From: Bacillota bacterium
GTDB lineage: Bacteria; Sysuimicrobiota; Sysuimicrobiia; Sysuimicrobiales; Segetimicrobiaceae
Length of the DNA: 64,000 nt
Reading direction: 5' to 3'
Assembly: GCA_021324295.1 (NCBI GenBank)
Contig: JAJPJJ010000032.1
Location: 12,919-76,918 of the forward strand
Positions 9,072 through 47,647 of the stretch are shown here, piece by piece (position 1 is the stretch's first letter; each line of letters starts with the position of its first letter). The position numbers and the translations under genes are program-made. A model generated the notes under the pieces. It searched no databases. It was not told the origin of the DNA and worked only from the letters and a program-made list of their open reading frames with translations.

Positions 9072-9072
9072 T

Positions 9073-9458: not shown

Positions 9459-9543
9459 CGGGGTGCGGCTTCGCCCCCTGGCGGACCCGGCCGTCGTGGA
9501 CGTGGCGGTCCGGTCCCGCTGAGTCTGTCCCCGGCGCGCCCGC

Positions 9544-10578: not shown

Positions 10579-10750
10579 GCACGCCACCTCCTCAGAAGCC
10601 GCGCAGGCGCTCCGGGGTCCGTGGGGGCGCCCACAGCCCGTTACGTCGCCGCGCCACCGTTTTCCTGTGCTGCGCGACGACACGCCGGGCACGCGGCACC
10701 GCGCCGCGCGAGAGGAACGGCGGGCGGCGCCCCGAAGAACCCCCCACGGC

Positions 10751-11350: not shown

Positions 11351-11387
11351 GCCGGCCCCGGGGACGCCGCGGGGCGGGGCTGCCGCG

Positions 11388-12569: not shown

Positions 12570-12669
12570 GGGCAGGGCGGGCACGGCGGCGGGGCACCGG
12601 GCACCGCAGGTCGAGCGCCTGCCGGGACGCGCAAGCGCCGGAGGCCGGGCGGACAGGAGGCAGCATGGG

Positions 12670-20635: not shown

Positions 20636-21773
20636 CCTCCTCTGGCGCCTGCTCGGCGCCCAGCTCCTGGTGATCGCGATCGGCGTCGTCGCCTCCGGGG
20701 TGATGATCACCGATCTCGCCTCGCACGCGTTCATGACCATCATGGCGCGCTACCACATCGAGCCCACCGCGGTCGAGGCGGAGTTCCTCGCCGCCACACA
20801 CCGCATCCTGCTGGTGAGCAGCATGGTGGCCGCCTCCGTCGCGATGCTGCTCGGGTGGATCCTCGTGCGGCGGCTGGTGCGCCCGGTGGCGCGGATGATG
20901 GTCCTCGCGGAGTCCATCGCGCAGGGGGACTACGCCGGCCGCGTCGATCCGCGGGGGCCCGACGAGATCGCGCGGCTCGCCGATGCGCTCAACCGGATGG
21001 CGGAGGGTCTGCAGCGGATCGAAGCGCTCCGGCGGGACCTCATCGCCAACGTGGCCCACGAGCTCCGAACGCCGCTCAGCACCCTGCGGGGGTATCTCGA
21101 GGCGCTGCGCGACGGCCTGGTACCGGCCGACCCGCAGATCCTCGCGTCCCTGCACGAGGAGGTGCTCCGGCTGGTGCGCCTGGTCGACGCCCTGCACCAG
21201 TTGAGCCAGTTCGATGCGCGGATCTCCCGGCTGCGTCCCACAGAGGTGGACCTCCCCGCGCTGGTCCGCGGGCTGCTCGAGGTGTACGGCCCCGAGCTCG
21301 CCCGGCGCGGGATGACGGTGCGCGCGGTCCACGATGCCCGCGTGCCGCGCGTGCGCGCGGACGCGGACCTCGTGGCGCAGGCGCTGCGCAACCTCCTGGA
21401 CAACGCCGCGCGGTACGCGCCCGACCGCGCGGATGTCGTGATCGCGACCTCCCGCGAGGACGGGGCCGTGCGCGTCACGGTCCAGAACACCGGCGAGGGC
21501 ATCTCCCCCGAGGACCTCCCGCACATCTTCGAGCGCTTCTACCGCGGCGAGAAGTCCCGGTCGCGCGAGACCGGCGGGGCGGGGATCGGCCTCGCGCTCG
21601 TGCAGGAGATCGCCCGGGCCCACGGGGGCGGTGCGGGCGCCGCGAGCGCGGACGGCCGCACGAGCGTGTGGTTCAGCCTCGCGCTCGAGCCCGCGGCGGC
21701 GCCTGCCACGCCCGCGGCCGGGGCGGAGGGAGCCGCGGACGAGCCGGGAGGATCCCGCGCGAGCCTCGGCTAG
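20625..21773 (+). CDS. Sensor histidine kinase
   Basis: Two TM segments, HisKA H-box (…IANVAHELRTPLSTLRGYLEAL…), and HATPase N/G boxes (…LDNAARYAP… and …GTGEGISPEDLPHIFERFYRGE…GGAGIGLALV…). GTG start overlaps the RR stop by 11 nt. Confidence 0.8.
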   Translation: MRDSLLWRLLGAQLLVIAIGVVASGVMITDLASHAFMTIMARYHIEPTAVEAEFLAATHRILLVSSMVAASVAMLLGWILVRRLVRPVARMMVLAESIAQGDYAGRVDPRGPDEIARLADALNRMAEGLQRIEALRRDLIANVAHELRTPLSTLRGYLEALRDGLVPADPQILASLHEEVLRLVRLVDALHQLSQFDARISRLRPTEVDLPALVRGLLEVYGPELARRGMTVRAVHDARVPRVRADADLVAQALRNLLDNAARYAPDRADVVIATSREDGAVRVTVQNTGEGISPEDLPHIFERFYRGEKSRSRETGGAGIGLALVQEIARAHGGGAGAASADGRTSVWFSLALEPAAAPATPAAGAEGAADEPGGSRASLG

Positions 21774-22633
21774 TGGCGCGCCGGCCGCCAGGCCTCGAAG
21801 CGGCGCTCGAGGCTGCGCAGCAGCATATCCAGGCCGATCCCCATCGTCGTGATGATCATCACGGCGACGAACAGCTTGTCGGTCTGGAACGTCGAGCCGT
21901 AGACCGCGATGAGGTAGCCGATCCCGGCGTTGGCCGCGTACAACTCCCCGAGCACGATGCCGACGAGGCCGCGCCCGGCGCCGATCCGGAGGCCGGAGAT
22001 CAGGAACGGGATCGCGCTGGGGAGCGCGATCGTGCGGAACACCTGGCCGTCGCGCGCGCCGAACGACCGCGAGACCGTGAGCAGCGACGCGTCCATCGTG
22101 TGCATCGCCGTCATCATGTTGAACAGGATCGGAAAGACCGCGCCGAGGAACACGAGCGCGACCTTGGACCAGATCGCGATCCCGAGCCAGATGACGATGA
22201 GCGGCATCATCGCCTCCCGCGGCGTCGCGTTGATGCCGGAGATGAACGGGTTGGAGGCGGCGAACGCCCATCGGTACCACCCGACCGCGATGCCGATCGG
22301 CACACCGACCACGATCGCGAGGCCAAACCCCAGCCCGAACTCCGAAAGGCTCACCCGCAGGTGCGGCCAGATCTCCCCGCTCGCGAACATCTTCTCGGCG
22401 GCGGCGGCGATGCGCGAGGGGCTGCTGATGAACAGCGGCTGGATGCGCCCGCTGGCCGTCACCCACTCCCAGAGGGCGAGGAACGCGGCGACCGACAGCA
22501 GGCCGATGAGCAGGTTGCCGCTGCGGACGATCCGCCGCCGCTGTCGTGCCCGGCGCTCGAACTGGGCGACCGCGGTCACCTCGGCGCCGGCCGCGCCCGC
22601 CGGCGTGCTAAGCACCGGCGGCCCCCCGGGCAT
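21770..22633 (-). CDS. ABC transporter permease, NitT/TauT (SsuC-like) family
   Basis: Six-TM BPD_transp_1 pattern (…LRVSLSEFGLGFGLAIVVGVPIGIAVG…, …DASLLTVSRSFGARDGQVFRTIALPSAIPFL…). The true start may lie downstream of 22633. Confidence 0.75.
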   Translation of the reverse strand: MPGGPPVLSTPAGAAGAEVTAVAQFERRARQRRRIVRSGNLLIGLLSVAAFLALWEWVTASGRIQPLFISSPSRIAAAAEKMFASGEIWPHLRVSLSEFGLGFGLAIVVGVPIGIAVGWYRWAFAASNPFISGINATPREAMMPLIVIWLGIAIWSKVALVFLGAVFPILFNMMTAMHTMDASLLTVSRSFGARDGQVFRTIALPSAIPFLISGLRIGAGRGLVGIVLGELYAANAGIGYLIAVYGSTFQTDKLFVAVMIITTMGIGLDMLLRSLERRFEAWRPARH

Positions 22634-25438: not shown

Positions 25439-26413
25439 TCAGTACGCGGCGAGGGCCCGGATCGCGCCCGCGATCTCCTCGACCTGCGGCTGGAACGCCG
25501 CCTCGAGCACGGGGCTGTGCGGGACCGGGGTGTCCTCGCTGGCGAGCCGCACCACGGGGCCGTCCAGCGACTCGAACGCCTCCTCCGCGATCAGCGCGGC
25601 CACCTCGGCGCCCACGCCCGCGGTCCGCGTCGCCTCGTGAACGATGAGGGCCTTCCCGGTTTTGCGCACCGTGCCGAGGATCGCGTCCCGGTCGAGCGGA
25701 AGGAGGCTGCGCAGGTCGAGGACCTCGGCCGCGATCCCATCCCGGGCGGCCGCGTCCGCGGCGGCGAGGCACTTGTGGAGCATCCACCCGTAGGAGATGA
25801 CGGACAGCGCCGTCCCCTCGCGCGCCACGTGGGCGCGGCCGATCGGGGTCACGTGCTCACCGTCCGGCACCTCCTCCCGCCGGTACCGGTACAGGTGCTT
25901 GTGCTCGAAGTACAGGACCGGGTTGGGATCGCGGATCGCCGCGAGCAGCAGCCCCTTCGCATCGCCGGCGGTCGCAGGCGCGACCACCTTGAGGCCGGGC
26001 GTGTGCACGAACCACGCCTCCTTGCACTGCGAGTGGAACGGCCCGCCCTTCACGTCGCCGCCGTAGGGCATGCGGAGGACCAGCGGCAGCGGACACCCGG
26101 TCCGCCAGTGGAACGTCGCGGCCATGTTGACGACCTGCGTGAACGCGTCCGTGACGAAGTCGGCGAACTGGAGTTCGACGACCGGCCGCATGCCCATCAC
26201 CGCGGCCCCGATCCCCGCCCCGACGTTGGCCGCTTCCGACAGCGGGGCGTCGATCACCCGCCAGGGGCCGAACTCGTCGAGAAACCCCTTCGTGATCCCG
26301 AACGCCCCGCCGTGGACGCCGATGTCCTCGCCGAGGACGAACACGCGGGGGTCGCGCCGCATCTCGCTGCGCAGCGCCTCCCGGATCGCTTCGAGGTAGG
26401 TCATCTGCGCCAC
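25439..26413 (-). CDS. 2-oxoacid dehydrogenase E1 component beta subunit (TPP-dependent, pyruvate/acetoin/BCKDH type)
   Basis: MAQMTYLEAIREALRSEMRRDPRVFVLGEDIG…GGAFGITKGFLDEFGPWRVIDAPLSE… is a canonical E1beta transketolase-like domain. Confidence 0.85.
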   Translation of the reverse strand: MAQMTYLEAIREALRSEMRRDPRVFVLGEDIGVHGGAFGITKGFLDEFGPWRVIDAPLSEAANVGAGIGAAVMGMRPVVELQFADFVTDAFTQVVNMAATFHWRTGCPLPLVLRMPYGGDVKGGPFHSQCKEAWFVHTPGLKVVAPATAGDAKGLLLAAIRDPNPVLYFEHKHLYRYRREEVPDGEHVTPIGRAHVAREGTALSVISYGWMLHKCLAAADAAARDGIAAEVLDLRSLLPLDRDAILGTVRKTGKALIVHEATRTAGVGAEVAALIAEEAFESLDGPVVRLASEDTPVPHSPVLEAAFQPQVEEIAGAIRALAAY

Positions 26414-26419
26414 GCGTGC

Positions 26420-27427
26420 TCACCGTCCGTCGCTGGCCGCATACACGCCCTCCGCCACCGACGCCGGCGCGGGCTCCGGGCTTGCCTCGGCCCACGCCAG
26501 CGCCTCCTCCACCTCCTGCGCGATCCGTCCCTGCATCGCGCGGTCGGCCTCGGCCGTCAGCTGCCCTTCCTCCCGCAGCCGGCGCTCGAACAGCGCGATC
26601 GGGTCGCGCGCCGCCCACGCCGCCAGCAGCTCCCGCGGCACATACGCGAAGTGGTCCGCCTCGCTGTGGCCGCGCATGCGCATCGTTCGGCACTCGATCA
26701 GCGTGGGGCCGCCCCCGTCCCGCGCGCGCGCGACGGCGGCGCGCGCGGCGGCGTACACCGCGAGCACGTCGTTGCCGTCGACCGCGACCCCGGGGATCCC
26801 GTACCCCGGCGCCTTGTCAACGAGCGCGCGCGCCGCGGTCTGGCGGTCGAGCGGCGTCGAGTACGCGTACTGGTTGTTCTCGAGGACCAGCACGACCGGC
26901 AGGCGGAGCACCGCGGCGAAGTTCACGCCCTCGTGCCAGGCGCCGGTGCTGGTCGCCCCGTCGCCGAAGAACGTCAGCACGACGCGCGCCTGGCCGCGCT
27001 GCCGGCAGGCGAGCGCCATCCCGGCGGCCACCGGCACGGACGCTGCCATGTGGCTGATGAACGGGAGGATGCCGAGACGCGGGTCGCCCATGTGGATGTT
27101 GCCGTCGCGGCCCCGCGTGAGGCCGCCTTCCCGGTCGAGGAACTGCGCGAACACCCGGCGCGCCGGGATCCCCCGCATGAGGTACGCGGCGAGGTCGCGG
27201 TGCATCGGCGCCAGCAGGTCTGCGGGCCCGAGCGCGTAGGTCGCCCCCACGGCGATCGCCTCGTGTCCCCACCCGGTGAAGTACGCGCCGGGGATCCGCC
27301 CCTGGTAGTACAGCTTGATGGCGCGGTCCTCGATCGCGCGCTGCAGGCGCATGTAGTACAGCATCTCGAGCAGCTCGCCCGGGGTGAGCGCATCCCCCGC
27401 CCGCGACGTGGCCTCGATCGTGCTCAT
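26420..27427 (-). CDS. 2-oxoacid dehydrogenase E1 component alpha subunit (TPP-binding)
   Basis: ATG 27427..27425 verified in sequence. …YRMMLLQRAIEDRAIKLYYQGRIPGAYFTGWGHEAIAVG… and the TPP motif …GDGATSTGAWHEGVNFAAVLRLPVVLVLENNQYA…. The upstream 300 aa of the track ORF is low complexity and overlaps the NMO gene. Confidence 0.85.
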   Translation of the reverse strand: MSTIEATSRAGDALTPGELLEMLYYMRLQRAIEDRAIKLYYQGRIPGAYFTGWGHEAIAVGATYALGPADLLAPMHRDLAAYLMRGIPARRVFAQFLDREGGLTRGRDGNIHMGDPRLGILPFISHMAASVPVAAGMALACRQRGQARVVLTFFGDGATSTGAWHEGVNFAAVLRLPVVLVLENNQYAYSTPLDRQTAARALVDKAPGYGIPGVAVDGNDVLAVYAAARAAVARARDGGGPTLIECRTMRMRGHSEADHFAYVPRELLAAWAARDPIALFERRLREEGQLTAEADRAMQGRIAQEVEEALAWAEASPEPAPASVAEGVYAASDGR

Positions 27428-28551
27428 CGCCCCTCGCGCACGCGGCGTGCGAGGTGCGTGAGCACGTCGCGCGCCTCCGCGACGATCCGGCGGACGACGT
27501 CGCCGGCGCCCGGCAGGTCGTGGATCAGCCCGGCGCTCTGTCCGGCCAGCATCGGGAAGTACTCCCCGTCCCCCCGGCGCACCGCCTCCGCGTAGATGTC
27601 CTGGGCCGCTCCGGCCTGCAGGAGGCCGGGGAGGACCGGGGCGCCCGAGGCCTCGTACTCGCCGGCGAAGGTGTTGCGGAGCGCGCGGGCGTACAGCCCG
27701 GTGAACGCGTCCGTCACGGTGGTCGCATCGCTCGTCCGCTCGAGCAGCGCCCGCTTCCAGAACTCCGGCGCCATCGACTCGCGGGTGGCGACGAAGCGCG
27801 TGCCGAGGAGCACGCCCTCGGCGCCCAGCGCCAGCGCGGCCACCATCCCCCGCCCGTCCACGATGCCGCCGGCTGCGATGACGGGGACCCCTACCGCGTC
27901 GACGATCTCCGGCACCAGCGCCGCGAGCCCCACGCTCGCGCCGTCGCGTGAGCGCGGCTTCACCCAGGTCGACCGGTGTCCTCCGGCCTCGCTGCCCTGG
28001 GCGACGATCGCGTCCACGCCGGAGCGCGCGACGGTGCGCGCGTCCTCGACGGTCGCGACCATCGCGATCACCTTGATGCCCCGCTCGTGGCAGCGGCGCA
28101 CCATCCCGGGCCCCGGATCGCCGAGGCCGATGCTCCACACGGGCACGCGCTCCTCGAGGATCACCTCGAACGCGGCATCGACAAGATCCGGGAGACGCTC
28201 CGGCCTCCCCCACGCCTCGGGGATGCCGAGCCGCGCGCGGAACCGGTTGAGGGCGCCGTGCACCGCCCGCACCGTCGCCTCGGGGATGCGCGCCGCGTCG
28301 ACCGGCGGTCGGATCTCGGTGTGCAGCCACAGGTTGACCCCGAAGGGGCGGTCGGTCAGCTCGCGCACGCGCCGGATCTGCGCGCGAAGCGCGTCCGGCG
28401 CCAGGTGCAGCCCGGCCAGGATGCCCAGTCCCCCGGCGCGGGAGACTTCGGCGGCCAGGTCGGGGCCGGCCACGCGGCCCATGCCGGACTGGATGATCGG
28501 GTAGTCGATCCCGAGCAGGTCACACAGCGTGGTCCGGAGGGTTGCGTCCAT
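27424..28551 (-). CDS. Nitronate monooxygenase / 2-nitropropane-dioxygenase-family FMN enzyme (FabK-like)
   Basis: ATG 28551..28549 verified in sequence. …LLGIDYPIIQSGMGRVAGPDLAAEVSRAGGLGILAG… and …PVIAAGGIVDGRGMVAALALGAEGVLLGTRF… are NMO TIM-barrel signatures. Its stop lies immediately before the E1alpha start. Confidence 0.8.
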   Translation of the reverse strand: MDATLRTTLCDLLGIDYPIIQSGMGRVAGPDLAAEVSRAGGLGILAGLHLAPDALRAQIRRVRELTDRPFGVNLWLHTEIRPPVDAARIPEATVRAVHGALNRFRARLGIPEAWGRPERLPDLVDAAFEVILEERVPVWSIGLGDPGPGMVRRCHERGIKVIAMVATVEDARTVARSGVDAIVAQGSEAGGHRSTWVKPRSRDGASVGLAALVPEIVDAVGVPVIAAGGIVDGRGMVAALALGAEGVLLGTRFVATRESMAPEFWKRALLERTSDATTVTDAFTGLYARALRNTFAGEYEASGAPVLPGLLQAGAAQDIYAEAVRRGDGEYFPMLAGQSAGLIHDLPGAGDVVRRIVAEARDVLTHLARRVREGR

Positions 28552-28600
28552 GGTGGCCTCCTGCGCCCGGCCCGATCCCTGCGATCGGGGGGCGACCGCA

Positions 28601-29617
28601 CTACCGGGCTCCACCCGGTGCGCCGTCGTATGGCAGCCCGGCGAGCTCCCGCAGCGCGCGCTCGACGTAGACGCGCGCCATCCGCTTGCGGTAACCGATC
28701 GTGAGGTCCGCGTTGTCGAGCGGCTTGGCGGGCTCGGAGGCCGCCTGGGCGACGCGCCCGATGAGGTCGGCGGTGAGGCGCTGTCCCATCACGAGGCCGG
28801 CGGCGCGGGTGGCGACGACCGGGCGGGACGCCACGGCGCCGAGGACGATCCGCGCGTCCTCGATCACGCCGCCCGGCCCCGACCGCAGGGCCACGGCCAC
28901 GCCCAGGATCGGGAAGTCGAACGAGCCCCGGCGGCGGAGCTTCCAGTAGGTCGACCGCCAGCCGTCGGCGGGCGGTAGGATGACATCGACGAGGATTTCG
29001 TCCGGCGCCTTGCTCAGGTAGCGCATCCCGTCGTCGCGGTAGAGATCGGCCGCGGAGACGACGCGCTCTCCCCCGGCGCCCACCAGGCGCACCCGCGCGC
29101 CGAGCGCGATCGCGGCTGGCGCCGCGTCCGTGGAGGACAGCGCCCAGCACCGGGGGCTGCCGGGGGCGACGAGGCAGATGTCGCCGTCCTTCTTCATGCA
29201 GAACCCGATCGATTTCCGCCAGTGATAGGTCTGGTTGTAGTAGTTGCACCGGGTATCGAGGCACAGGTTGCCGCCGAGGGTGCCCATGTTCCGCAGCGGA
29301 GGCGTGCTCACCGCGCCCGCCGCGAGCGCGAGCGCCCGGTAGCCCTCGGCGACGGCCGGGTGAGAGGCGACCTGCGCGAGCGTGGCGCAGGCTCCGATCG
29401 CCAGCCCCTGCGCCGGCGTCCCCGAGATCCGGCCGAGGTCGCGGATCCCGCGCAGCCCGACGAGCACCTTGGGCTCGAACTGCCGGCGCTTCATGTTGGG
29501 ATAGAGGTCCGTCCCGCCGGCCACGAGCATCCCTTCGGGACCGGCCTCCCCGATCTGCCCGACGGCCTGCTCTAGGGTGCGCGGGGCCAGGTAGGTGAAC
29601 GGGGGGAGGCGGAGCAT
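28601..29617 (-). CDS. Mo-hydroxylase FAD-binding medium subunit (CoxM/XdhB-like)
   Basis: MLRLPPFTYLAPRTLEQAV…MLVAGGTDLYPNMK…MGTLGGNLCL is a molybdopterin-dehydrogenase FAD-binding domain. Confidence 0.8.
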   Translation of the reverse strand: MLRLPPFTYLAPRTLEQAVGQIGEAGPEGMLVAGGTDLYPNMKRRQFEPKVLVGLRGIRDLGRISGTPAQGLAIGACATLAQVASHPAVAEGYRALALAAGAVSTPPLRNMGTLGGNLCLDTRCNYYNQTYHWRKSIGFCMKKDGDICLVAPGSPRCWALSSTDAAPAAIALGARVRLVGAGGERVVSAADLYRDDGMRYLSKAPDEILVDVILPPADGWRSTYWKLRRRGSFDFPILGVAVALRSGPGGVIEDARIVLGAVASRPVVATRAAGLVMGQRLTADLIGRVAQAASEPAKPLDNADLTIGYRKRMARVYVERALRELAGLPYDGAPGGAR

Positions 29618-29684
29618 CAGGCGCGCCTGTCCCGCTGCCGTCGCGGCACGTGCGCCCCGGCGACGGCGCCTAGCCGCCGCGCCA

Positions 29685-32186
29685 TCACGGTTCCTCCGGC
29701 GCCTCGCGATCGCGCGGCCGCGCGTCGCTCGGCGCCGTGCCGGTGGGCAGGTCGTCCGGCAGTCCCGGCGCGCCGCCGGCGACCGGCAGCCCCCGGCGCC
29801 ACGGCACGCTCCAGCCCGCGGGCGGCTCGACCTTGATGGGATCGCGGAACCGGAACGGCGGGACCCGCCGGGGTCCCACCCGTCCCACGCCGCCCCGGGC
29901 CGCCTGGTCCAGCGCGGCCAGCACCTTGTCGGGCGTGATCGGCACCTCGTCGATCCGCACGCCGACCGCGTCGTACACGGCGTTCGCGACCGCCGGGATC
30001 ACCGGCAGGAGCGGTCCCTGGCCGGCCTCCTTCGCGCCGAACGGTCCCTCGGGATCGTCGGTCACCACCAGGATCGTCTCCACCGGCGGCATCTCGAGGA
30101 ACGTCGGGCTCTTGTACTCCAGCATCGACGGGATCTTGTGGAGCCCCTTGCGGAAGACCTGCTCTTCCATCAAGGCCTCGCCGAGCGCCATGTAGACGCT
30201 GCCCTCGATCTGGCCGATCACGAGCGTCTCGTTGATCGCGCGGCCGATGTCGTGGGCGATCCAGACCCGCTGCGGCCGGACCTCCCCGGTCGCCGGGTCC
30301 ACGGCGACCTCGACGACGGCGGCGGAGAACGAGTACGCCGGGGACGGGCCGACGCCGGACCCCTTGTAGGGTCCGGCGAGCCTGGGCGGCCGGTACGAGC
30401 CGACGGTCACGAGCGTGCCGAACCTCGCCTCGGCCAGCGCCGCCGCCTCCGGGAACGTCACGCCGCGCTCCGGTTGCGCCGCGGCGTGGATGCGGTGGTC
30501 GCCGACGACCAGGCCGTCGGGCTCCACCTCGAGGTGCGCGGAGGCGGCCGCGACGAGCAACTCGCGCATCTTCCGCGCGGCCTCGAGCGCCGCGTTGCCG
30601 GCCATGAAGGTGACCCTGCTGCTGTACGACCCGAGATCGATCGGGGTCAGGTCCGTGTCCGCGGTCACGAGGCCGATCTCCGAGGGGGCGAGGCCCAGCA
30701 CCTCCGCGACGATGCCGGCGAGCACCGAGTCGCTGCCCTGCCCGATGTCGATCGCCCCGCAGGACACCAGCACGCCGCCGCCCCGGTCCACGCGGATCTG
30801 CACCTCGCTGTGCGGCATGTCGTTCCAATAGATCGGGAGCCCCGCGCCGCTCAGGTACGTGCTGACCGCGAGGCCCACGCCGCGGCCGAACGGCAGGCGC
30901 CGGTGCTTCGCGCGAAAGCCGCTCGCCTCCGCCACGCGCTCGATGCACTCCCGCAGCCCGTTGCTCGTGATGCGGAGGTGGTTCACGGTGCGGGTGAACG
31001 GCTCGGTGGCGTTGGCGAGGCGGATCGCGACCGGATCCAGGCCGAGGTCCTCCGCGAGCTTGTCCATCTGTGCCTCGATCGCGAACCGGGGCTGCGGCGT
31101 CCCGTGGCCGCGCTTGGGCCCGCACGGCGGCTTGTTCGTCCACAGGCGCGTGCCCTCGAACTTGTACGCCGGGATCTTGTACGTGACCGTCTGCAGCGCG
31201 CCGGTGTAGTACGTCGTCGCGATGCCGTAGGAGCCGTACGCGCCGCCGTCGAGGAACGTCTTGATGTGGCACGCCGTGATCCGGCCGTCGCGCCGCACCC
31301 CTGTCCGGAGCCACATCAACACCGGGTGACGGCCCCGGTGGGCGTAGAATACCTCCTCGCGCGTGAGCGTGATCTTCACCGGGCGGCCCGTCGCCACCGC
31401 GAGCTTGGCCGCGCAGAGCTCGTGGCTAAACGGGTCGCTCTTGCCGCCGAACCCGCCGCCGACCGGCGTCGCGATCACGCGGATCCGGCTCATCGGCAGG
31501 CCGAGCACCTTGGCGAGCGCGCGGTGGACGTAGTGCGGCGTCTGCGAGGACGTCCAGAGCGTGAGCCGGCCGGCCGCGTCGTACTGCGCCACCGCGCTGT
31601 GCTGCTCCATCGGCAGGTGCGTGTTGCCCTGGAAGAAGAACACGTCCTCGCGGATGTGGTCGGCCTGCGCAAACCCCTGCGCGACGTCGCCGAATTCGAG
31701 GGAGACGTTCTTGTGGACGTTGGGGACCGGGCCGTCGCCGTGCTCCTGCACCCGGACGGACGTCTCGGCGACCGCCTCCTCGATCGACATGACCGGCGCG
31801 AGCGGCTCGTACTCGACCTCGATCGCCTCGCACGCGCGCTCCGCGGTCTCCTCGTCCAGCGCCGCCACGGCGGCGATCGGGTCACCGACGTACCGCACTT
31901 TCTCCAGGCACAGCGCCTCCTCGTCCTGGCTGGTCGGCATGATCCCGAACCGGACCGGCAGATCGCGCCCGGTGATCACGGCGTGCACCCCGGGCAGGGC
32001 GCGTGCGCGGGAGGTGTCCAGGCGGACGATCCGGGCGTGCGGCAGGTGGCTGCGCAGCAGCTTGCCGTAGAGCATCCGCGGCAGGACGAGGTCGTCCGCG
32101 TACCGCGCCTCCCCGGTCGTCTTCCCGGGGCCATCGACCCTGGCCCAGGGCCTGCCGATGAACCGCGGACCGCCGCCGGCGGTCAC
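29685..32186 (-). CDS. Xanthine-dehydrogenase / aldehyde-oxidase-family molybdopterin-binding large subunit (CoxL-like)
   Basis: GTG 32186..32184 verified in sequence, overlapping the coxS stop as GTGA. Blocks …GEARYADDLVLPRMLYGKLLRSHLPHARI… (a/b hammerhead) and …ATPVGGGFGGK… (Mo-cofactor binding). The upstream 180 aa of the track ORF is low complexity. Confidence 0.85.
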   Translation of the reverse strand: MTAGGGPRFIGRPWARVDGPGKTTGEARYADDLVLPRMLYGKLLRSHLPHARIVRLDTSRARALPGVHAVITGRDLPVRFGIMPTSQDEEALCLEKVRYVGDPIAAVAALDEETAERACEAIEVEYEPLAPVMSIEEAVAETSVRVQEHGDGPVPNVHKNVSLEFGDVAQGFAQADHIREDVFFFQGNTHLPMEQHSAVAQYDAAGRLTLWTSSQTPHYVHRALAKVLGLPMSRIRVIATPVGGGFGGKSDPFSHELCAAKLAVATGRPVKITLTREEVFYAHRGRHPVLMWLRTGVRRDGRITACHIKTFLDGGAYGSYGIATTYYTGALQTVTYKIPAYKFEGTRLWTNKPPCGPKRGHGTPQPRFAIEAQMDKLAEDLGLDPVAIRLANATEPFTRTVNHLRITSNGLRECIERVAEASGFRAKHRRLPFGRGVGLAVSTYLSGAGLPIYWNDMPHSEVQIRVDRGGGVLVSCGAIDIGQGSDSVLAGIVAEVLGLAPSEIGLVTADTDLTPIDLGSYSSRVTFMAGNAALEAARKMRELLVAAASAHLEVEPDGLVVGDHRIHAAAQPERGVTFPEAAALAEARFGTLVTVGSYRPPRLAGPYKGSGVGPSPAYSFSAAVVEVAVDPATGEVRPQRVWIAHDIGRAINETLVIGQIEGSVYMALGEALMEEQVFRKGLHKIPSMLEYKSPTFLEMPPVETILVVTDDPEGPFGAKEAGQGPLLPVIPAVANAVYDAVGVRIDEVPITPDKVLAALDQAARGGVGRVGPRRVPPFRFRDPIKVEPPAGWSVPWRRGLPVAGGAPGLPDDLPTGTAPSDARPRDREAPEEP

Positions 32187-32725
32187 GATGCCCCTCCTGA
32201 ACGCTGGGGCACGCGCGCGGCCGGGGGCCCGCCGTCCCCCGTCGGCTGGGGGGCGTCGCCCCGCGCCCGCGCGGCGGCCAGCTCGACCGCCTCGAGGATC
32301 TTGAGGTAGCCGGTGCACCGGCAGAGGTTGCCCGCAAGCCACGCCGACACGTCCTCGCGCGCGGGCGCGGGGTTCCGGTCCAGCAGCGCCTTGGCCGCGA
32401 GCAGCATCCCCGGCGTGCAGTACCCGCACTGCGCCGCCCCCAGCTCGGTGAACGCCACCTGCAGCGGGTGCAGCTCGCCGCCCCGCGCAAGGCCCTCGAT
32501 CGTGGTGATCTCGCGGTCCTGCACCTCCACGGGCAGGGTCAGGCAGCTCAGCACCGGCGTCCCGTCGACGAGCACCGTGCAGGTGCCGCACTCCCCGAGC
32601 TCGCACCCGTGCTTGGTCCCCGTAAGGCCCAGGTCTTCCCGGAGGACCTCGAGGAGCGTCTTGTGGACCGGGGCGATGACGTCGCGGGCCTCCCCGTTGA
32701 TGCGAAGCGTGAGGGCCACCTTCAT
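32183..32725 (-). CDS. (2Fe-2S)-binding small subunit of the Mo-hydroxylase (CoxS-like)
   Basis: ATG 32725..32723 verified in sequence. MKVALTLRINGE…, plant-type ferredoxin cysteines (CELGECGTCTV) and a second cluster (CGYCTPGM…NLCRCTGY). Confidence 0.85.
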   Translation of the reverse strand: MKVALTLRINGEARDVIAPVHKTLLEVLREDLGLTGTKHGCELGECGTCTVLVDGTPVLSCLTLPVEVQDREITTIEGLARGGELHPLQVAFTELGAAQCGYCTPGMLLAAKALLDRNPAPAREDVSAWLAGNLCRCTGYLKILEAVELAAARARGDAPQPTGDGGPPAARVPQRSGGAS

Positions 32726-33674: not shown

Positions 33675-35273
33675 GTGGCGCACGCGATCGCCAGCCGGCG
33701 CGCGATCCTGCCCCGGGGCGTGAGCCCGCGCACGTTCGCGCGGGCGATCCGCGAGTTCACCGAGATCGTCGGCGGCCGGAACGTCTCGGTCTCGCCCGCC
33801 GAGCTCGTCCCGTACGCGCACGACGTGATCATGGTGCCCCCGATCTGGCCGTCCGCGGTCGTCCGGCCCGGCTCGGTCGAGGAGATCCAGCGCATCGTCC
33901 GGGTCGCCGGCGCGCTCCGGATCCCGCTCTGGCCGCTCAGCACCGGGAAGAACATCGCCTACGGCCGGATGATGGCCGTGGATCCGGGCAACGTGATCGT
34001 GGACCTCGCGCGGATGAACCGGATCCTCGAGGTCAACGAGCAGCTCGCGTACGCGGTCGTCGAGCCGGGCGTCACCTACGCCCAGCTCTACAAGCACCTG
34101 CGCGACCGGAACCTCCCGCTGTGGCTGGACCCGCCGGCGACCGCGCCGGGCGCCGGCCCGCTTGGCAACACCGTCGAGCGCGGGGTCGGGTACACGCCGT
34201 ACGGCGAGCACTTCCTCTTCTCGTGCGGGATGTAGGTCGTGCTCCCGGACGGCCGGCTGCTGCGCACCGGCTCCGGCGCGCTGCCGGGGTCGCGGACGTG
34301 GCACATCTTCAAGTGGGGGTTCGGCCCGTACCTCGACGGGCTGTTCACGGCCAGCAACTACGGCATCGTGACGAAGCTCGGGATCTGGCTGATGCCGGAG
34401 CCGCCCGCCCACCAGCCGATCCTGATGACGTGCCCGCGGGAAGACGACATCGTGGCGATCATGGACGTCCTGCGTCCGCTCAAGATCTCCCACACGCTGC
34501 CCAGCGCGGTCGTCGTCGCGCACGCGCTGCTCGCGCTCGCCGCGGAGGCGGAGTACCCGTGGCACCTCACCGGCGGCACACGGCCCGTCCCCGATGGCTG
34601 GATCCGCGAGGAGGCGCGGAAGCGGATGCTCGGGATCTGGAACATCGCCGGGTGCGTCTACGGTTCGCCGGCGACCGTCGCGGAGACCGCCGCCGCCGTG
34701 CGCCGCACGGTGGCCGCCGCCCTGCCGCAGGCCACGGTGCTGGATGTCGAGGAGGCGCGCCAGAGTCCGTACTGGGACCACAAGGTCCGCAACATGACCG
34801 GGGTCCCGTCGATGGTCGAATACAGCCGGCTGTCGTGGCGTGGCGGCGGCAACGCGTTCGTCGCGCCGGTGGTCCCCCTCTTCGGCGAGGAGGCACGCCG
34901 GCACATGGAGATCGCCCGGCCGATCTTCTGGAGGCACGGGTTCGACTACATCGGCGAGTTCATCGCGGCGACGCGGGATCAGCACCACGTGATGATGCTG
35001 CTGCACAAGCAGCCGGACGAGATGGAGCGCGCGATGCGGTGCTACCGGGAGCTGACCGACGCGTTCTGCGACGAGGGCTACCTCCCCTATCGCACCAACG
35101 TCGCGTTCATGGAGCACACGATGAGCCGGCTGGACCCCGTGTTCCGGGACGTCTGCGTGCGGATCAAGCGGGCGCTCGACCCGCACGGGATCCTGGCGCC
35201 CGGCAAGAACGGGATCCGGGTGGACGGCGCGCCGGCGCCGCGCAGCCGCCGCCGGCGGGGCGGGACGCGATGA
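33675..35273 (+). pseudogene. VAO/PCMH-family FAD-linked oxidase (vanillyl-alcohol oxidase / p-cresol methylhydroxylase type), interrupted by an in-frame TAG at 34233-34235
   Basis: Two same-frame ORFs (33675..34235 and 34239..35273). The N-terminal half is a VAO-like FAD-binding domain (…PLWPLSTGKNIAYG…VVEPGVTYAQLYKHL…[31 protein letters not shown]…). VAO has …[27 protein letters not shown] here, so the TAG replaces a conserved Glu (GAG). Confidence 0.6.
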
Positions 35274-36667
35274 GCCGCCGGCGGCCTGCCCGCGCGGGGA
35301 ACGGCCGACGCGCCGGCGGCGTGAGCGGGGCGGACCTCCGCCGGGAGATCGAGGCCAAGGGGATCAACCTGTTCGAGTGCTACACCTGCCGGCTCTGCAC
35401 CGAGGAGATGCAGCGCGGCATCCTGACGCTGACCGAGCCCTACCGCAAGGCGTTCGGGGAGGCCGAGTGGAGGCGCGACCTGTTCAACGAGCCGGTGTGC
35501 CCCACGTGGGACTACTACCGCCACGAAGCGTACACCGCCTACGGCCGGGCGCTCCTGGCCCGCGACCTGGCGGACGGCCTGGCGGTCGACCCGGCGGATC
35601 CCCGGCTGCGCGAGGTCGTGTACACCTGCCTGCTTTGCACCGGGTGCCAGGAGCTGTGCTTCTCCCGCAACCGCGTGCCGCTGATGAAGCCGTTCATGGA
35701 GCTGCCGCGCGAGGTCTGGGACATCCACGGGATCCTGCTGGCCGAGCGGAAGTGGCTGTTCGAGCGCCACGGCTGGGCCGCCGTGCCCGAGGGGCTGGCC
35801 GCGCTGGCGCAGCGGATCCTCCAGAGCGGCACCGCCACCGGCGAGCCGCGCCGCGGGGCGACGCGCTGGATCGAGGCCACCGGCAGCGAGGTCGTGGATC
35901 TCAGCCGCGCCGGGCGCGCCGACGTCCTCCTCCTGCTCGATGCGCAGGCGCCGTACGAGCGCGCGCTGTGGCCGGCGCTCGCCGCGATGGTGCGCCTGCT
36001 GCGCGCGGCGGGGCTGGTGGTGGGCGTGCTCGGCGCGGAGGAGATCGCCACCGGGCTCGCGGTGCTCGCGTGCGGCGACGTCCAGGACTACCTCCGGCTG
36101 AACCACGAGGCGGTCCGCCGCGTCGCGCAGGTCGCGGACCGCGCGGGGGTCGGATGCGTCGTCACGGTGGACGACACCGGGTACCTGGCGTGGACGGCGC
36201 CGGCCAAGCACTACGGGCTGGCCGGCGACCTCCCGTTTCCGTTCGCCCACGCCGTGCCGTTCCTCCACTCCCTGCTCGAGGAGGGCCGGGTGCCCCTCGT
36301 GCGGCCGGTCGAGATGGAGGTCGTGCTGCTCGACTCCTGCCACCTGGGACGGTACAGCAAAGTCCTCGACGCGCCGCGCCGGATCCTCGCCCGCGTGCCG
36401 GGCCTCCGCGTGCAGGAGGCGCACCTGCGGCGTGAGTACCTCTACTGCTGCGGCGCCGCGGCCGGGGTGCCGGAGGCCTATCCGGCGCAGGCCGCGTGGT
36501 GGGGCCGGAAGCGGCTGGGCCAGGCCCGGGAGGTCCTCCACACCGGGCGCACCGTGGTGACGACGTCGCTCGTCTGCGGCGCGCACCTGCGCCGGATCGC
36601 TGCGGGCACGGGCGATGCGCTCGAGGTGCGGGACCTCGCGGAGGTCGTGGCCGCGGCCCTGGCCTGA
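35270..36667 (+). CDS. Iron-sulfur protein with two 4Fe-4S motifs and two CCG domains (GlcF/HdrD/LldE-F-like)
   Basis: ATG 35270 overlaps the upstream TGA as ATGA. CYTCRLC…CP and CLLCTGCQELC ferredoxin-like motifs; CCG-type cysteine motifs …DSCHLGR… and …YLYCCGAAAG…. Confidence 0.75.
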   Translation: MSRRRPARAGNGRRAGGVSGADLRREIEAKGINLFECYTCRLCTEEMQRGILTLTEPYRKAFGEAEWRRDLFNEPVCPTWDYYRHEAYTAYGRALLARDLADGLAVDPADPRLREVVYTCLLCTGCQELCFSRNRVPLMKPFMELPREVWDIHGILLAERKWLFERHGWAAVPEGLAALAQRILQSGTATGEPRRGATRWIEATGSEVVDLSRAGRADVLLLLDAQAPYERALWPALAAMVRLLRAAGLVVGVLGAEEIATGLAVLACGDVQDYLRLNHEAVRRVAQVADRAGVGCVVTVDDTGYLAWTAPAKHYGLAGDLPFPFAHAVPFLHSLLEEGRVPLVRPVEMEVVLLDSCHLGRYSKVLDAPRRILARVPGLRVQEAHLRREYLYCCGAAAGVPEAYPAQAAWWGRKRLGQAREVLHTGRTVVTTSLVCGAHLRRIAAGTGDALEVRDLAEVVAAALA

Positions 36668-42565: not shown

Positions 42566-43452
42566 CGCGCCGCACGCCGCGACGCCTGCGCCCCCGCCGC
42601 GCGCAGCACGCGCCGTCCCCGCCGCGGCCGTCGCCCCGGGACGCCGGCGGGCCTCCGCGGCGGCGCTACCTCGTCAACGCGGTCGAGCGAGCGCTCGGCA
42701 TCCTCGAGCACGTCGACGGCAGCGCGCGCGGCACGGGCATCACCGAGCTGAGCCGGCGGCTCGGGCTGGGGAAGAGCACCGTGCACCGGCTCTGCGCGAC
42801 GCTCGAACACCACGGCTATCTGATCCGCGATCCCGCCACCGGCCGCTACCGGCTGAGCCTGCGCGTCTTCCAGATCGGCAGCACGGCGCTCAGCGACCTG
42901 GGCCTGCCGGCTCGCGCGATGCCCGCGCTCGAAGACCTCGGCGCCTCCGTCCAGGAGACGGTGCACCTCGCGATCCTCGACGGCAGCGAGATCGTGTTCA
43001 TCGGCAAGGTGGAGAGCTCCCGGCCGCTGGGCCTGTATTCCCGGGTGGGGCGCCGCTCCCCGGCGCACTGCACGGCGCTCGGCAAGGTGCTGCTCGCGCA
43101 CGCGGCGGCGGAGGCGCGCGCGCACGTGCTCTCCCGACCGCTCGCGCGCTACACGGCCGCGACGATCACCACGCCGCAGGCGCTGGAGCGCGCGCTGGAC
43201 GAGGTCCGCCGCCGCGGATACGCCGTGGACGACCAGGAGTTCGAGGACGGCGTTCGCTGCGTGGCCGCGCCGGTCCGCGACCACAGCGGCCGCGTCGTGG
43301 CGGCGCTCAGCGTCTCGGCGCCCGCGGGCCGGCTGCCGCGCGGCCGCGTCCCGTCCCTCGCCGAGCAGGTCGTGGCCGCCGCCCGGCGCGTCTCGCGGGA
43401 GCTCGGGTGGCTGGAGCCGCAGGCCGCGGAAGGGGCGCGCCGTGGGACGTGA
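42562..43452 (+). CDS. IclR-family transcriptional regulator
   Basis: ATG 42562 overlaps the upstream TGA as ATGA. HTH …LGILEHVDGSARGTGITELSRRLGLGKSTVHRLCATLEHHGYL… followed by an IclR effector domain. Confidence 0.8.
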   Translation: MTRRTPRRLRPRRAQHAPSPPRPSPRDAGGPPRRRYLVNAVERALGILEHVDGSARGTGITELSRRLGLGKSTVHRLCATLEHHGYLIRDPATGRYRLSLRVFQIGSTALSDLGLPARAMPALEDLGASVQETVHLAILDGSEIVFIGKVESSRPLGLYSRVGRRSPAHCTALGKVLLAHAAAEARAHVLSRPLARYTAATITTPQALERALDEVRRRGYAVDDQEFEDGVRCVAAPVRDHSGRVVAALSVSAPAGRLPRGRVPSLAEQVVAAARRVSRELGWLEPQAAEGARRGT

Positions 43453-45271
43453 CCGGGCCTGGCTGATCGGCGGCCGCACGGGCGAGGGCGTGGACTCGGC
43501 CGGCGACGTGTTCGCGCGCGCGGCGGCGCGGTGCGGGCTGGAGGTGCACACGTTCCGGCTGTTCCCGCCGATCATCAAAGGCGGGCCCACCTCCTACGAG
43601 GTGCGAATGGCCGAGCGCCCCCTCTACGCGCGCAGCGACGCGCTCGACTGCGTCATCGCGCTGGACGACGAGACCGTCGCCCGCCACGCGCCGGCGCTGC
43701 GGCCCGGCGGGCTCCTCGTCGTCGACGACCCCAGGGTCACGGCCCGCCCGGGGACGGCGCCGGACGTCGCGGTGTGGCCCGCGCCCCTCACCGCGCTGGC
43801 CCGGGAGGCAGGCGACGGCATCATGCGGAACATCGTCGCCCTCGGCGTCTCCGCCCGCCTCCTCGGCCTCGACAGGGCGGTGCTGCAGGAGACGGTCCGC
43901 GAGCGCTTCGCCGGCAAGGGCGCGCAGGTGTGCGCGCGGAACGTCGCCGCGGTGGACGCCGGGTGGCGCCACGCGGAGGCGCATCCGGATCGGTGGCCCC
44001 CCCTCGGGACGGCGGGGGGCGCGCGGGGCGCGGACGCCCGCGGCGCACCGTGCCGGATGCGGTATCTCCTGTCGGGCAACGACGCGATCGCGCTCGGCGC
44101 GCTCGCCGCCGGGTGCCGGCTGTACGCCAGCTATCCGATCACGCCGGCGAGCGACGTGCTGGAGTGGATGGCCGAGCACCTGCCGGAGGTCGGCGGCGCG
44201 GCGTTCCAGACCGAGGACGAGATCGCCGCGCTCGGCATCGTGCTCGGCGCCGGCTACGCCGGCGTGCGGGCGATGACCGCGACCTCGGGCCCCGGCCTCT
44301 CGCTGATGACCGAGACGCTCGGGCTGGCCGGGATGGCCGAGATCCCGGCCGTGATCGTCGCCGCGCAGCGCCCCGGGCCGAGCGCCGGGATGCCCACCAA
44401 GCACGAGCAGAGCGACCTGCTGCACATCGTCTTCGCATCGCACGGCGAGTTCCCCCGCATCGTGCTCGCCCCCGGGACCCTCGAGGAGTGCTTCCTCGAT
44501 ACGGCGCTCGCGTTCAACCTCGCGGAGCGGTACCAGTGCCCGGTGATCGTCGCGGCGGACCAGGACCTCGTGCTGAAGAAGCGGACGGTCACGGGCCTGC
44601 CGGTGGAGGAGGTCCGCATCGACCGGGGCGAGCGGCTGAGCGACGACGAGGCCGCCGCGCTCGGGAGGGCGTACCGACGGTACGCCCTGACCCCGAGCGG
44701 CATCTCGCCGCGCGCCGTGCCGGGGCAGCCGGGCGCGGTGTTCCTGAGCAGCGGCGACGCGCACGACGACCGGGGCGTGATCGACGTGGAGGACCCGGCC
44801 GTCCGGCGGGCGATGGTGGACAAGCGCCTGCGCAAGACGCGCGCGGTGTGGGCGGACGTCAGCGGGACCCGCGTCGAGGGAGACGGCGACCTCCTGGTCG
44901 TCTCCCTCGGCTCGCCGTGCGGCCCCGTACGGGAGGCGCTCGCGCGGTTGGCCCGGGACGGCGTGCGCGCGCGCTTCCTGCAGGTCCGGTGCCTGTGGCC
45001 GTTTCCGACGCACGAGATCGGGCCCGAGGTGGCGCGGGCCCGGCGCGTCGCGGTCGTCGAGCACAACGCGACCGGTCAGCTCGCGACGCTCGTCCTCGCG
45101 CAGGTCGGCGGGCACGGCAAGATCGCCGGGGTGCGCAAGTACGATGGGCTCCCGTTCACGCCGGGCGAGGTGGAAGGCCGCCTCCGCGAGATCATCGGCG
45201 GGGACGGCCGCATCGATCGTCTGGCTGCCGAGGTGCGGCGGTGCTCGTCTCACGACTCCGGCGCCAGCTAG
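43442..45271 (+). CDS. 2-oxoacid:ferredoxin oxidoreductase, fused gamma-alpha subunit (KorA/VorA-type)
   Basis: GTG start overlaps the iclR end by 11 nt. The N-terminal ~190 aa is a POR gamma-type domain (…LIGGRTGEGVDSAGDVFARAAARCGLEVHTFRLFPPIIKGGPTSYEVRM…). The alpha domain follows (…RYLLSGNDAIALGALAAGCRLYASYPITPASDVLEWMAEHLPEVGGAAFQTEDEIAALGIVLGAGYAGVRAMTATSGPGLSLM…). Confidence 0.8.
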   Translation: MGRDRAWLIGGRTGEGVDSAGDVFARAAARCGLEVHTFRLFPPIIKGGPTSYEVRMAERPLYARSDALDCVIALDDETVARHAPALRPGGLLVVDDPRVTARPGTAPDVAVWPAPLTALAREAGDGIMRNIVALGVSARLLGLDRAVLQETVRERFAGKGAQVCARNVAAVDAGWRHAEAHPDRWPPLGTAGGARGADARGAPCRMRYLLSGNDAIALGALAAGCRLYASYPITPASDVLEWMAEHLPEVGGAAFQTEDEIAALGIVLGAGYAGVRAMTATSGPGLSLMTETLGLAGMAEIPAVIVAAQRPGPSAGMPTKHEQSDLLHIVFASHGEFPRIVLAPGTLEECFLDTALAFNLAERYQCPVIVAADQDLVLKKRTVTGLPVEEVRIDRGERLSDDEAAALGRAYRRYALTPSGISPRAVPGQPGAVFLSSGDAHDDRGVIDVEDPAVRRAMVDKRLRKTRAVWADVSGTRVEGDGDLLVVSLGSPCGPVREALARLARDGVRARFLQVRCLWPFPTHEIGPEVARARRVAVVEHNATGQLATLVLAQVGGHGKIAGVRKYDGLPFTPGEVEGRLREIIGGDGRIDRLAAEVRRCSSHDSGAS

Positions 45272-45443
45272 AGGCGTGGGGGTGGGGCCTGCCCTCCGCT
45301 CCCAGCCGACGCGGTCTTCGCTTCGGAGCGGCGGGCGGGCGGAAATCGGCGCGCCGACCGGAGTCCGCGCCGGACAGGTCCCCGTCCCCCTCCCCGCGCC
45401 GCCACCGGATATCGGCAACGGAGCACTACCAGGGGGGCCAGCG

Positions 45444-46319
45444 ATGGCGACGGCGCTGACGTTCAAGGACTTCGCCGGGCAGAAGGCGATGTGGTGCCCG
45501 GGGTGCGGCGACTTCGCGGTCCTGCGCGCCCTGCAGGAGGCGTGCGCCCGGCTCGCCCTGCCCCCGCACCGCATCGTGCTGGTCTCCGGCATCGGCTGCT
45601 CCGGCAAGATCACGTCGTACTTCTCGTCCTACGGGTTCCACGTGCACCACGGACGGACGCTGCCGATCGCCACGGGGATCGCCCTCGCCAACCGCGACCT
45701 CGCGGTGATCGCCGCGGGCGGCGACGGAGACGGGTACGGGATCGGCCTCAACCACCTCATCCACGCGATCCGGCGCGACGTGGACCTCACCTACGTCGTG
45801 ATGGACAACGGGGTCTACGGCAACACGAAGGGCCAGACGTCCCCGACGACGGTGGCGGGGACCATCACCCCCTCGTCCCCCTCCGGGGCGGTCGAGGAGC
45901 CGGTCCACCCGCTCCGGCTCGCGCTCGCCGCCGGGATCACGTACCTCGCCCAGGGTGTGAGCAGCGACGTCCCGCAGCTCGTGCGGCTCATCGCAGGCGG
46001 CATCGAGCACCGCGGGTTCGCGCTCATCAACGTGCTGAGCCCCTGCCCGACCTACGACCGCCTGCGCACGTATCAGTGGTGGCGGGCGCGCCTCGTGAAC
46101 CTCGACGAGGAGCCGTCGTACCGCCCGGACTCGCGCGAGCTGGCGGTGGAGGCGGTCTCGAGCCGCGATGCGTCGATCGTCGGGCTCGTCTACCGGGCCC
46201 CGGGGCGGCCGTTCCAGAGCCGCCTGCCCCGCTTTCGCCCTTCGCCGCTCGCCTCCGAGCGGCTCGCGCCGGATGGGGAGCGGGCCCGGCGGATCCTCGA
46301 CGCGCGGTACGCCGTATGA
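45444..46319 (+). CDS. 2-oxoacid:ferredoxin oxidoreductase beta subunit (TPP-binding)
   Basis: ATG 45444 verified in sequence. …WCPGCGDFAVLRALQEA… and the TPP motif …GGDGDGYGIGLNHLIHAIRRDVDLTYVVMDNGVYGNTKGQ…. Confidence 0.85.
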   Translation: MATALTFKDFAGQKAMWCPGCGDFAVLRALQEACARLALPPHRIVLVSGIGCSGKITSYFSSYGFHVHHGRTLPIATGIALANRDLAVIAAGGDGDGYGIGLNHLIHAIRRDVDLTYVVMDNGVYGNTKGQTSPTTVAGTITPSSPSGAVEEPVHPLRLALAAGITYLAQGVSSDVPQLVRLIAGGIEHRGFALINVLSPCPTYDRLRTYQWWRARLVNLDEEPSYRPDSRELAVEAVSSRDASIVGLVYRAPGRPFQSRLPRFRPSPLASERLAPDGERARRILDARYAV

Positions 46320-47647
46320 GCGCCCCGAGCCCGCCCCCCGGCGACCCGGCCCTCTTCGTCGACCGCACGCTGGAGACGATGAGCCGGGAGGACCTCGTCG
46401 AGTACCAGTGGCAGCGGCTGGCCCCGATGCTCGGCCGGATCCTCGAAGGCAACGCCTTCTACGGCCGGAAGTGGGCCGGCACCGTGCGCCACGCGCGCGG
46501 GATCCGGGGGTGGGACGAGTTCCGGAGGCTCCCGTTCACCACGAAGGCCGAGCTCGCCCGCGACCAGGCGGAGCATCCGCCGTTCGGCACGAACCTGACG
46601 TACCCGCTGGAGCGCTACGTGCGCTTCCATCAGACGTCCGGGACGACCGGCCGCCCGATGCGCTGGCTGGATACGGCGGAATCGTGGGACTGGTGGATCC
46701 GCTGCTGGACCTTCGTATACCGGGCCGCCGGCGTCGGCGCCGGCGACCGGATCTTCTTTGCGTTCTCGTTCGGGCCGTTCGTCGGATTCTGGGCCGGGTT
46801 CGACGCGGCCCGGCGGGTCGGGGCGCTCGCGATCCCGGGCGGGGGGCTCGACTCGCGGCTGCGGGTACGGATGCTGGTCGAGACGCAGCCCACCGTGCTC
46901 GTGTGCACGCCATCCTACGCGCTGCGGCTGGCCGAGGTGGCGCGGGCGGGGGACGTCGATCCCGCGGCGCTCGGGATCCGGGTCACGATCCACGCCGGCG
47001 AGCCCGGGGCGAGCATCCCGGCGACCCGCCGGCGGATCGAGGCGGCCTGGGGCGCGCGGTGCATCGACCACACCGGGCTCACCGAGGTCGGCGCGACCGG
47101 GTTCACCTGCGCCGCGGGGCAGGTGCACCTCACCGAGAGCGAGTTCATCGCCGAGGTCCTCGACCCCGAGCGCGGGACGGTGAGCCCGGACGGCGAGGGC
47201 GAGCTGGTGCTGACCAACCTGGGACGGGAAGGCTCCCCGGTGGTCCGGTATCGCACCGGCGACCGCGTCCGGCTCAGCGTCGAGCGGTGCCCCTGCGGCC
47301 GCACGTTCGCGCGGATGGTCGGCGGCATCCTCGGACGAGCCGATGACATGCTGGTCGTGCGCGGGATGAACGTGTTCCCGAGCACCATCGAGGACGTCGT
47401 CCGGCGGTTTGCCTGTGTCGACGAGTTCCGGATCGAGGTGCGGCGGCGCGCGGAGATGGCGGACCTCCGCGTCGTGGTGGAGGTCGACGACGCGCGCCAC
47501 GGGCCGGAGGTGGTCGCGCGGACGCTCGCCGACCTGCGCGAGCAGCTCCGGCTCGCCTGCGGCATCCGAATCGACGCGCACGCGGTGACCGCGGGCACGC
47601 TCCCGCGATTCGAGCTGAAGGCCCGACGGGTCGTGCACATCGAGTAG
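46316..47647 (+). CDS. Phenylacetate-CoA-ligase-family (PaaK-like, AMP-forming) aryl/acyl-CoA ligase
   Basis: ATG 46316 overlaps the upstream TGA as ATGA. …RFHQTSGTTGRPMRWLDT… AMP-binding motif and PaaK-family N-/C-terminal blocks (…EYQWQRLAPMLGRILEGNAFYGRKW…). Confidence 0.85.
   Translation: MSAPSPPPGDPALFVDRTLETMSREDLVEYQWQRLAPMLGRILEGNAFYGRKWAGTVRHARGIRGWDEFRRLPFTTKAELARDQAEHPPFGTNLTYPLERYVRFHQTSGTTGRPMRWLDTAESWDWWIRCWTFVYRAAGVGAGDRIFFAFSFGPFVGFWAGFDAARRVGALAIPGGGLDSRLRVRMLVETQPTVLVCTPSYALRLAEVARAGDVDPAALGIRVTIHAGEPGASIPATRRRIEAAWGARCIDHTGLTEVGATGFTCAAGQVHLTESEFIAEVLDPERGTVSPDGEGELVLTNLGREGSPVVRYRTGDRVRLSVERCPCGRTFARMVGGILGRADDMLVVRGMNVFPSTIEDVVRRFACVDEFRIEVRRRAEMADLRVVVEVDDARHGPEVVARTLADLREQLRLACGIRIDAHAVTAGTLPRFELKARRVVHIE

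Follow-up and report, generated by a model that had tools for sequence, protein, structure and literature searches.

An in-frame TAG that interrupts a PCMH/VAO-type flavoprotein gene in a single assembly is probably a consensus error

We studied a stretch of 64,000 nucleotides (hereafter the window) taken from contig JAJPJJ010000032.1 of the GenBank assembly GCA_021324295.1, in which a flavoprotein gene of the p-cresol methylhydroxylase/vanillyl-alcohol oxidase (PCMH/VAO) type is broken by one in-frame TAG. The T at window position 34233 that creates this stop is private to this one assembly. We consider it to be a consensus error, made during assembly or sequencing, with a probability of about 0.65. 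Artefact or real, the lesion does not characterise the gene as carried by the population.

The open reading frame (ORF) 33675-35273, on the positive strand, comprises 532 codons, and its sole in-frame TAG, at 34233-34235, is codon 187. The peptide flanking the TAG matches that given in a preliminary description of this DNA, and the remaining 531 codons translate exactly to an intact protein, P0001; the claims that the frame is continuous through the stop and that both halves are otherwise undamaged were thus borne out. A database search returned the intact 532-residue protein with Glu187, at 100% identity, as P0001 (NCBI, Logan, ENA) and as P0122 (JGI). The two fragments, P0121 (186 amino acids) and P0016 (344 amino acids), are on record solely from one NCBI contig of 106,806 bp, in which the annotation called P0016 at GTG 34239, the start that the preliminary description had pointed out. 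In the alignment with PCMH (structure 1DII) the stop coincides with the Glu in CGMEVVL, which is PCMH Glu186. Glu187 was invariant in 121 of 121 full-length homologues sharing 44-100% identity, so that the codon had rightly been called conserved.

For comparison we used the DNA around P0001 and its neighbour genes in other assemblies, 16 in all, which gave 40 contig stretches over window positions 4661-64000. Twelve stretches, from 10 other assemblies, cover the site, and all 12 have G at 34233 (GAG, Glu). The assemblies are ENA ERZ27279673 and ERZ27279671, JGI 3300005532, Logan SRR24677568 and SRR24677611, and NCBI JBAIHT, JBAIHZ, JBAIGM, JBAIGN and JBAIGS. The stop therefore corresponds to a single G-to-T change (GAG to TAG), as had been proposed from the sequence. 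Two of the stretches (L001 and L010, from ENA ERZ27279673 and JGI 3300005532) are identical to the window over 21,599 bp except at 34233, and the population as a whole is near-invariant over 59 kb among assemblies from several Centralia sites, 2014 to 2021. JGI 3300005532, ENA ERZ27279673 and most Logan contigs showed zero private differences over up to 59 kb. The JBAI assemblies and the runs SRR246775xx-6xx are soil metagenomes from the Centralia, Pennsylvania, coal-seam fire (Barnett and Shade 2024, PMC11237453), and a table in that paper pairs each JBAI assembly with its read set. A 50-mer over the site, with N at 34233, had no match in genome and metagenome contig collections; as the JGI contig with the G allele was found by protein look-up, these collections either lack the locus or failed to return it.

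Substitutions private to one assembly (singletons) were compared among assembled contigs as a control in place of reads. The window had five in 59.3 kb (4661-64000): three were G>T or C>A, none was synonymous and one was nonsense (Table 1). In 217.6 kb, six per-sample metaSPAdes assemblies (JBAIGL, JBAIGM, JBAIGN, JBAIGS, JBAIHT and JBAIHZ) had 29 such substitutions, with G>T or C>A accounting for 16; 21 of the 29 were missense, 4 synonymous, 2 nonsense and 2 intergenic. Over 204.7 kb, the contigs from MEGAHIT (ENA), JGI and Logan had 3, of which two were synonymous and none was G>T or C>A; this count leaves out the divergent strain of run SRR24677571 (see below). The private rates of the JBAI assemblies and of the other assemblers differed (P = 3e-6), and that of the window agrees with the JBAI batch (P = 0.41) and not with the other assemblers (P = 0.017). 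From this rate and from the spectrum of the changes we infer that the window contig belongs to a metaSPAdes-like batch. The two nonsense singletons of the JBAI assemblies were also GAG>TAG changes. One, at 34611 (E313*), lies in the same flavoprotein gene in JBAIGS010007925.1 (L009), the source of the fragments P0123 and P0124; the other, at 45059 (E540*), lies in the PFOR alpha gene of JBAIHT010002958.1 (L034) and yields a PFOR of 539 amino acids.

The effects of these changes on the encoded proteins point in the same direction. Random G>T and C>A changes in these genes would be expected to be missense in 62.6% of cases, synonymous in 32.6% and nonsense in 4.7%. Synonymous changes made up 4 of the 32 genic private changes, against an assumed 60% under purifying selection (P = 4e-8), and fell also under the random expectation of about 30% (P = 0.02); the singletons therefore cannot be reconciled with variation that has passed through purifying selection. 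Run SRR24677571 (L049), a distinct strain of 99.86% identity, illustrates real variation in this population: its changes are mostly transitions (5 of 8), and more of the genic ones are synonymous (3 of 7). No sequence motif marking a systematic error was evident around the 19 G>T or C>A singletons.

For the two sites that direct flank matching confirmed, assembly of the same reads with a second program contradicted the batch-specific singletons: at 20085, a mid-contig singleton of JBAIHT, Logan SRR24677575 has the consensus base, and so does Logan SRR24677612 at 42769, a JBAIGL singleton located 70 nt from the contig end. At a third site, 59129 (JBAIHT, 12 nt from the contig end), the Logan base was the consensus one in a blastn pile-up, the JBAIHT base not being re-confirmed by flank matching.

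Table 1 Features of the window discussed in the text and substitutions private to its assembly
Feature	Position	Strand	Evidence or remarks
PCMH/VAO-type 4-phenol-oxidising flavoprotein gene	33675..35273	+	532 codons, broken at codon 187; structure and Pfam matches
In-frame TAG	34233..34235	+	34233 is T in the window, G (GAG, Glu187) in 12/12 other stretches of the population
N-terminal fragment ORF, 186 amino acids (P0121)	33675..34235	+	Annotation consequence of the stop; ends inside FAD_binding_4
C-terminal fragment ORF, 344 amino acids from GTG 34239 (P0016)	34239..35273	+	Annotation consequence of the stop, no independent gene
Fe-S partner gene, 465 amino acids, HdrD/GlcF-like, CCG and 4Fe-4S dicluster motif	35270..36667	+	Pfam matches, synteny
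Private A>T (T348S)	7145	+	UbiD-like gene 6104-7525
Private C>A (P357T)	7172	+	UbiD-like gene 6104-7525
Private C>A (A127S)	22255	-	ABC permease gene 21770-22633; six other assemblies have C
Private G>T (E187*)	34233	+	Flavoprotein gene 33675-35273
Private T>C (T293A)	50463	-	Solute-binding protein gene 50044-51339; six other assemblies have T

The two private changes in the UbiD-like gene are only 27 nt apart, within the span of one read, and would fit one erroneous or minor-variant read path taken by the assembler. In a protein look-up, the window versions of the UbiD-like and solute-binding proteins were on record in no other indexed assembly.

We propose that the gene, which encodes an ordinary 4-alkylphenol-oxidising flavoprotein, is intact in the organism, an uncultured high-GC bacterium of the Centralia coal-fire soils, where it forms an operon with its Fe-S partner and an ABC uptake system. 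The TAG is a one-base G-to-T discrepancy private to one assembly. It would belong to the same class as the scattered, selection-blind singletons, rich in G>T and C>A, of the project's per-sample metaSPAdes assemblies, and would probably originate from damaged or miscalled reads that the assembler kept at modest coverage; T would then presumably not be the true majority base in the source reads. In that project DNA was extracted by the phenol-chloroform method and sequenced on a NovaSeq, and the reads were assembled by metaSPAdes in its assembler-only mode (PMC11237453); C>A/G>T artefacts from 8-oxoguanine (8-oxoG) formed in sample preparation are documented (PMC3616734). The case resembles assembly-level false pseudogenes in presenting a private allele at an invariant residue, beside unselected G>T and C>A singletons that were not recovered when a second assembler was used.

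Several points weigh against a consensus error. The 8-oxoG artefacts have been described at low allelic fraction (PMC3616734). Position 34233 is deep inside a 107-kb contig, whereas some half of the JBAI singletons are found no more than ~150 nt from a contig end, and a contig of that length suggests decent coverage, at which consensus errors should be rare. Only one mid-contig singleton, that at 20085, was compared with a second assembler. Genuine oxidative mutagenesis likewise leaves G>T changes, so that the spectrum by itself cannot tell the two apart. Note that the call of an artefact rests on assembled contigs, and the batch membership of the window contig on its private-variant rate and spectrum.

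It is possible, at odds well short of even, that the TAG is a genuine, very recent GAG-to-TAG nonsense allele in a clone or sub-population dominating one soil sample, i.e., a nascent pseudogene with the gene intact elsewhere; as a variant of this explanation, the assembler may have happened to follow a real minor allele. The T does stand in the deposited assembly, far from the ends of its contig, the rest of the gene is undamaged, as would be the case soon after a loss, oxidative mutation naturally produces G>T changes, and the second nonsense singleton in the gene, at 34611, could mean that the gene is dispensable. Against this, T was found in no other assembly of a near-invariant population recovered from 2014 to 2021, and the four other private changes of the window are all non-synonymous, a pattern like that of the batch-specific singletons, which the second assembler contradicted from the same reads at the two directly confirmed sites. 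Nor were private changes enriched in the flavoprotein gene: about 1.9 were expected by an estimate that allows for deeper sampling and 3 were observed, and a recurrent targeted inactivation is thus unsupported. We regard as very unlikely the further idea that the T at 34233 and the GAG>TAG at codon 313 (Cen15-2016) are both real, in which case a near-clonal thermal-soil population would be losing the enzyme repeatedly, soil patch by soil patch, under relaxed or negative selection and with oxidative G>T mutagenesis as the driver.

The orthologues bear on whether the interruption could be a conserved arrangement, which the preliminary description had allowed for should they too carry a stop or a split gene. 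In five related soil metagenome-assembled genomes (MAGs), with 85-87% amino-acid identity, the gene is unsplit and has GAG or GAA at the site, and no other assembly of the population carries a stop or a split there either; the TAG is therefore a lesion or an error and not a conserved arrangement. Synteny, judged where the MAG contigs reach far enough, is kept: in L022, L025 and L026 the flavoprotein gene is followed by those of the CCG Fe-S partner, solute-binding protein and permease, and in L023, L024 and L028 it has the molybdenum hydroxylase large subunit and a Fer2 gene upstream.

Programmed decoding of the TAG (by pyrrolysine, a suppressor tRNA or context-dependent readthrough), which would give a full-length enzyme, has in its favour only that the frame runs perfectly across the stop, and we give it almost no credence. 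The 55 called genes in 4661-64000 end in TGA (32), TAG (23) or TAA (0), i.e., TAG is a routine terminator here, which answers the earlier suggestion of checking for recoding by counting TAG stops; there is no tRNA gene in the 64-kb window; and the other assemblies have GAG, and the related MAGs GAG or GAA, at what is an invariant Glu. Amber readthrough and recoding were rejected; no orthologue has TAG at this site. TAA was wholly absent, and TAG unusually common as a terminator, even at the G+C content of about 73% found throughout the window.

A functional enzyme of two polypeptides, an N-terminal piece of 186 amino acids and a C-terminal piece of 344 restarted at GTG 34239, is equally hard to credit and was rejected: the GTG is 3 nt past the stop and is called by annotation pipelines, but the break does not coincide with a domain boundary, no split was found in the five orthologues or in any other assembly of the population, and the GTG has no Shine-Dalgarno-like motif. 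The preliminary description had placed the break between the FAD domain and the cap domain; residue 187 is inside FAD_binding_4 (59-199). The 20 nt before GTG 34239 (tctcgtgcgggatgtaggtc) contain no GGAG, GAGG or AGGA-type motif; most of the other starts examined, that of the flavoprotein included, have such a motif, though about 40% are without one. Among the four explanations offered earlier, sequencing or assembly error and recent nonsense mutation thus remain, while readthrough and expression as two polypeptides are unsupported.

The TAG carries little biological weight: since the gene is intact in every other recovery of the population, there is no recoding, split enzyme or established pseudogene here, and the allele, if real, would count as an ordinary loss-of-function mutation of recent origin. 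The TAG serves rather as a warning. In the per-sample metaSPAdes contigs of this project there is about one private substitution for every 7-8 kb, mostly G>T or C>A and mostly protein-altering, and the 59 kb compared in one population include three GAG>TAG stops that look false. The resulting fragment ORFs enter protein databases (P0016, P0121, P0123, P0124), where they can pass for pseudogenes or recoding. The error-like signature measured for this batch of public assemblies is a useful by-product.

The assignment of the flavoprotein to the PCMH/VAO type in the preliminary description was confirmed by structure matches. The best match among solved structures was p-cresol methylhydroxylase 1DII (E = 3.7e-137, query residues 8-516), with 1WVE also matched; other matches of the same family were two newer bacterial oxidoreductases, 9FFK and 8S7N (1e-130 to 1e-123), eugenol oxidase 5FXD (about 1e-103) and vanillyl-alcohol oxidase 1VAO (6e-96), in end-to-end alignments that include the cap domain. 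With the stop masked, FAD_binding_4 (PF01565) matched over its whole profile at residues 59-199 with 94.5 bits (cut-off 26.4). Residues Y96, E178, E382, Y472 and R473 align with PCMH Tyr95, Glu177, Glu380, Tyr473 and Arg474; three of these pairs (Y96, Y472 and R473) form the Tyr/Tyr/Arg triad that binds the phenolate in this family. The gene thus resembles PCMH PchF in its full-length match and in these conserved residues, and differs from PchF/PchC in two respects (besides the stop at codon 187 in this assembly). Tyr384, to which PCMH attaches FAD by an 8-alpha-O-tyrosyl link, is replaced by Leu386, and the cytochrome c subunit by a CCG Fe-S partner. A pair of histidines at 437-438, in a DQHHV motif aligned with DMHHV of PCMH, lies in the region where VAO carries its FAD-linking histidine. 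The gene is thus an unremarkable new member of the 4-phenol-oxidising PCMH/VAO family and not a canonical PchF/PchC.

The preliminary description had also noted that the downstream Fe-S gene overlaps the flavoprotein gene in ATGA fashion, and this was so: ATG 35270 overlaps the TGA at 35271-35273. The product matched Pfam CCG with 31.2 bits (cut-off 20.6) and Fer4_8 with 24.9 bits (under the cut-off of 27). It had no NCBIfam equivalog above cut-off; its matches to TfrB, TmcB, DsrK and HmcF (HdrD-like) were weak and all far under cut-off. No cytochrome domain was found among the called neighbour genes of the flavoprotein. The two genes are translationally coupled, the CCG Fe-S gene standing in place of a cytochrome c subunit, and because this partner gene adjoins, the flavoprotein would be a dehydrogenase handing electrons to the Fe-S protein rather than an oxidase. 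The pairing may represent an undescribed electron-transfer arrangement for 4-phenol dehydrogenases. The same logic, an FAD_binding_4 flavoprotein followed by a CCG/4Fe-4S protein, is known from the GlcD/GlcF type (glycolate oxidase, D-lactate dehydrogenases); the flavoprotein here differs in belonging to the 4-phenol-oxidising branch, and it reached 68 bits with the GlcD models, whose cut-off is 568. An archaeal (Hecatellales) homologue with 40% identity to the flavoprotein (L027) is likewise followed by a CCG protein, 25% identical to the Fe-S partner. The partner belongs to a small family: some 24 clusters are above 70% identity, a single one stands at 44%, and few lie beyond.

Beyond the partner, further genes of the operon encode a branched-chain-type ABC uptake system, a reductase of the ApbA family, an IclR regulator, a 2-oxoacid:ferredoxin oxidoreductase pair and a PaaK-like ligase. 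The surroundings (5095-13242, 25439-32725 and 43442-47647) hold many genes of aromatic and heterocycle catabolism: a UbiD/UbiX-type decarboxylase pair, a cupin, an FMN-dependent dehydrogenase, a CoxSML-like molybdenum hydroxylase with CoxG, the 2-oxoacid:ferredoxin oxidoreductase with its PaaK-like ligase, several F420-type luciferase-like oxidoreductases and an F420 ligase.

The JBAI contigs also showed short breaks that split or shorten gene calls. In L002/L015 a run of 10 N and 4 extra bases at window position 28971 leaves the CO-dehydrogenase-like FAD subunit called as 99 and 255 amino acids instead of 338. In L018 (21830-21865) and L045 (13593-13709), 10 unaligned bases each replace 34 nt and 115 nt of the window, respectively; they look like scaffold gaps similar to that of L002/L015. 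The permease is accordingly called with 279 instead of 287 amino acids, and the solute-binding protein with 379 instead of 414.

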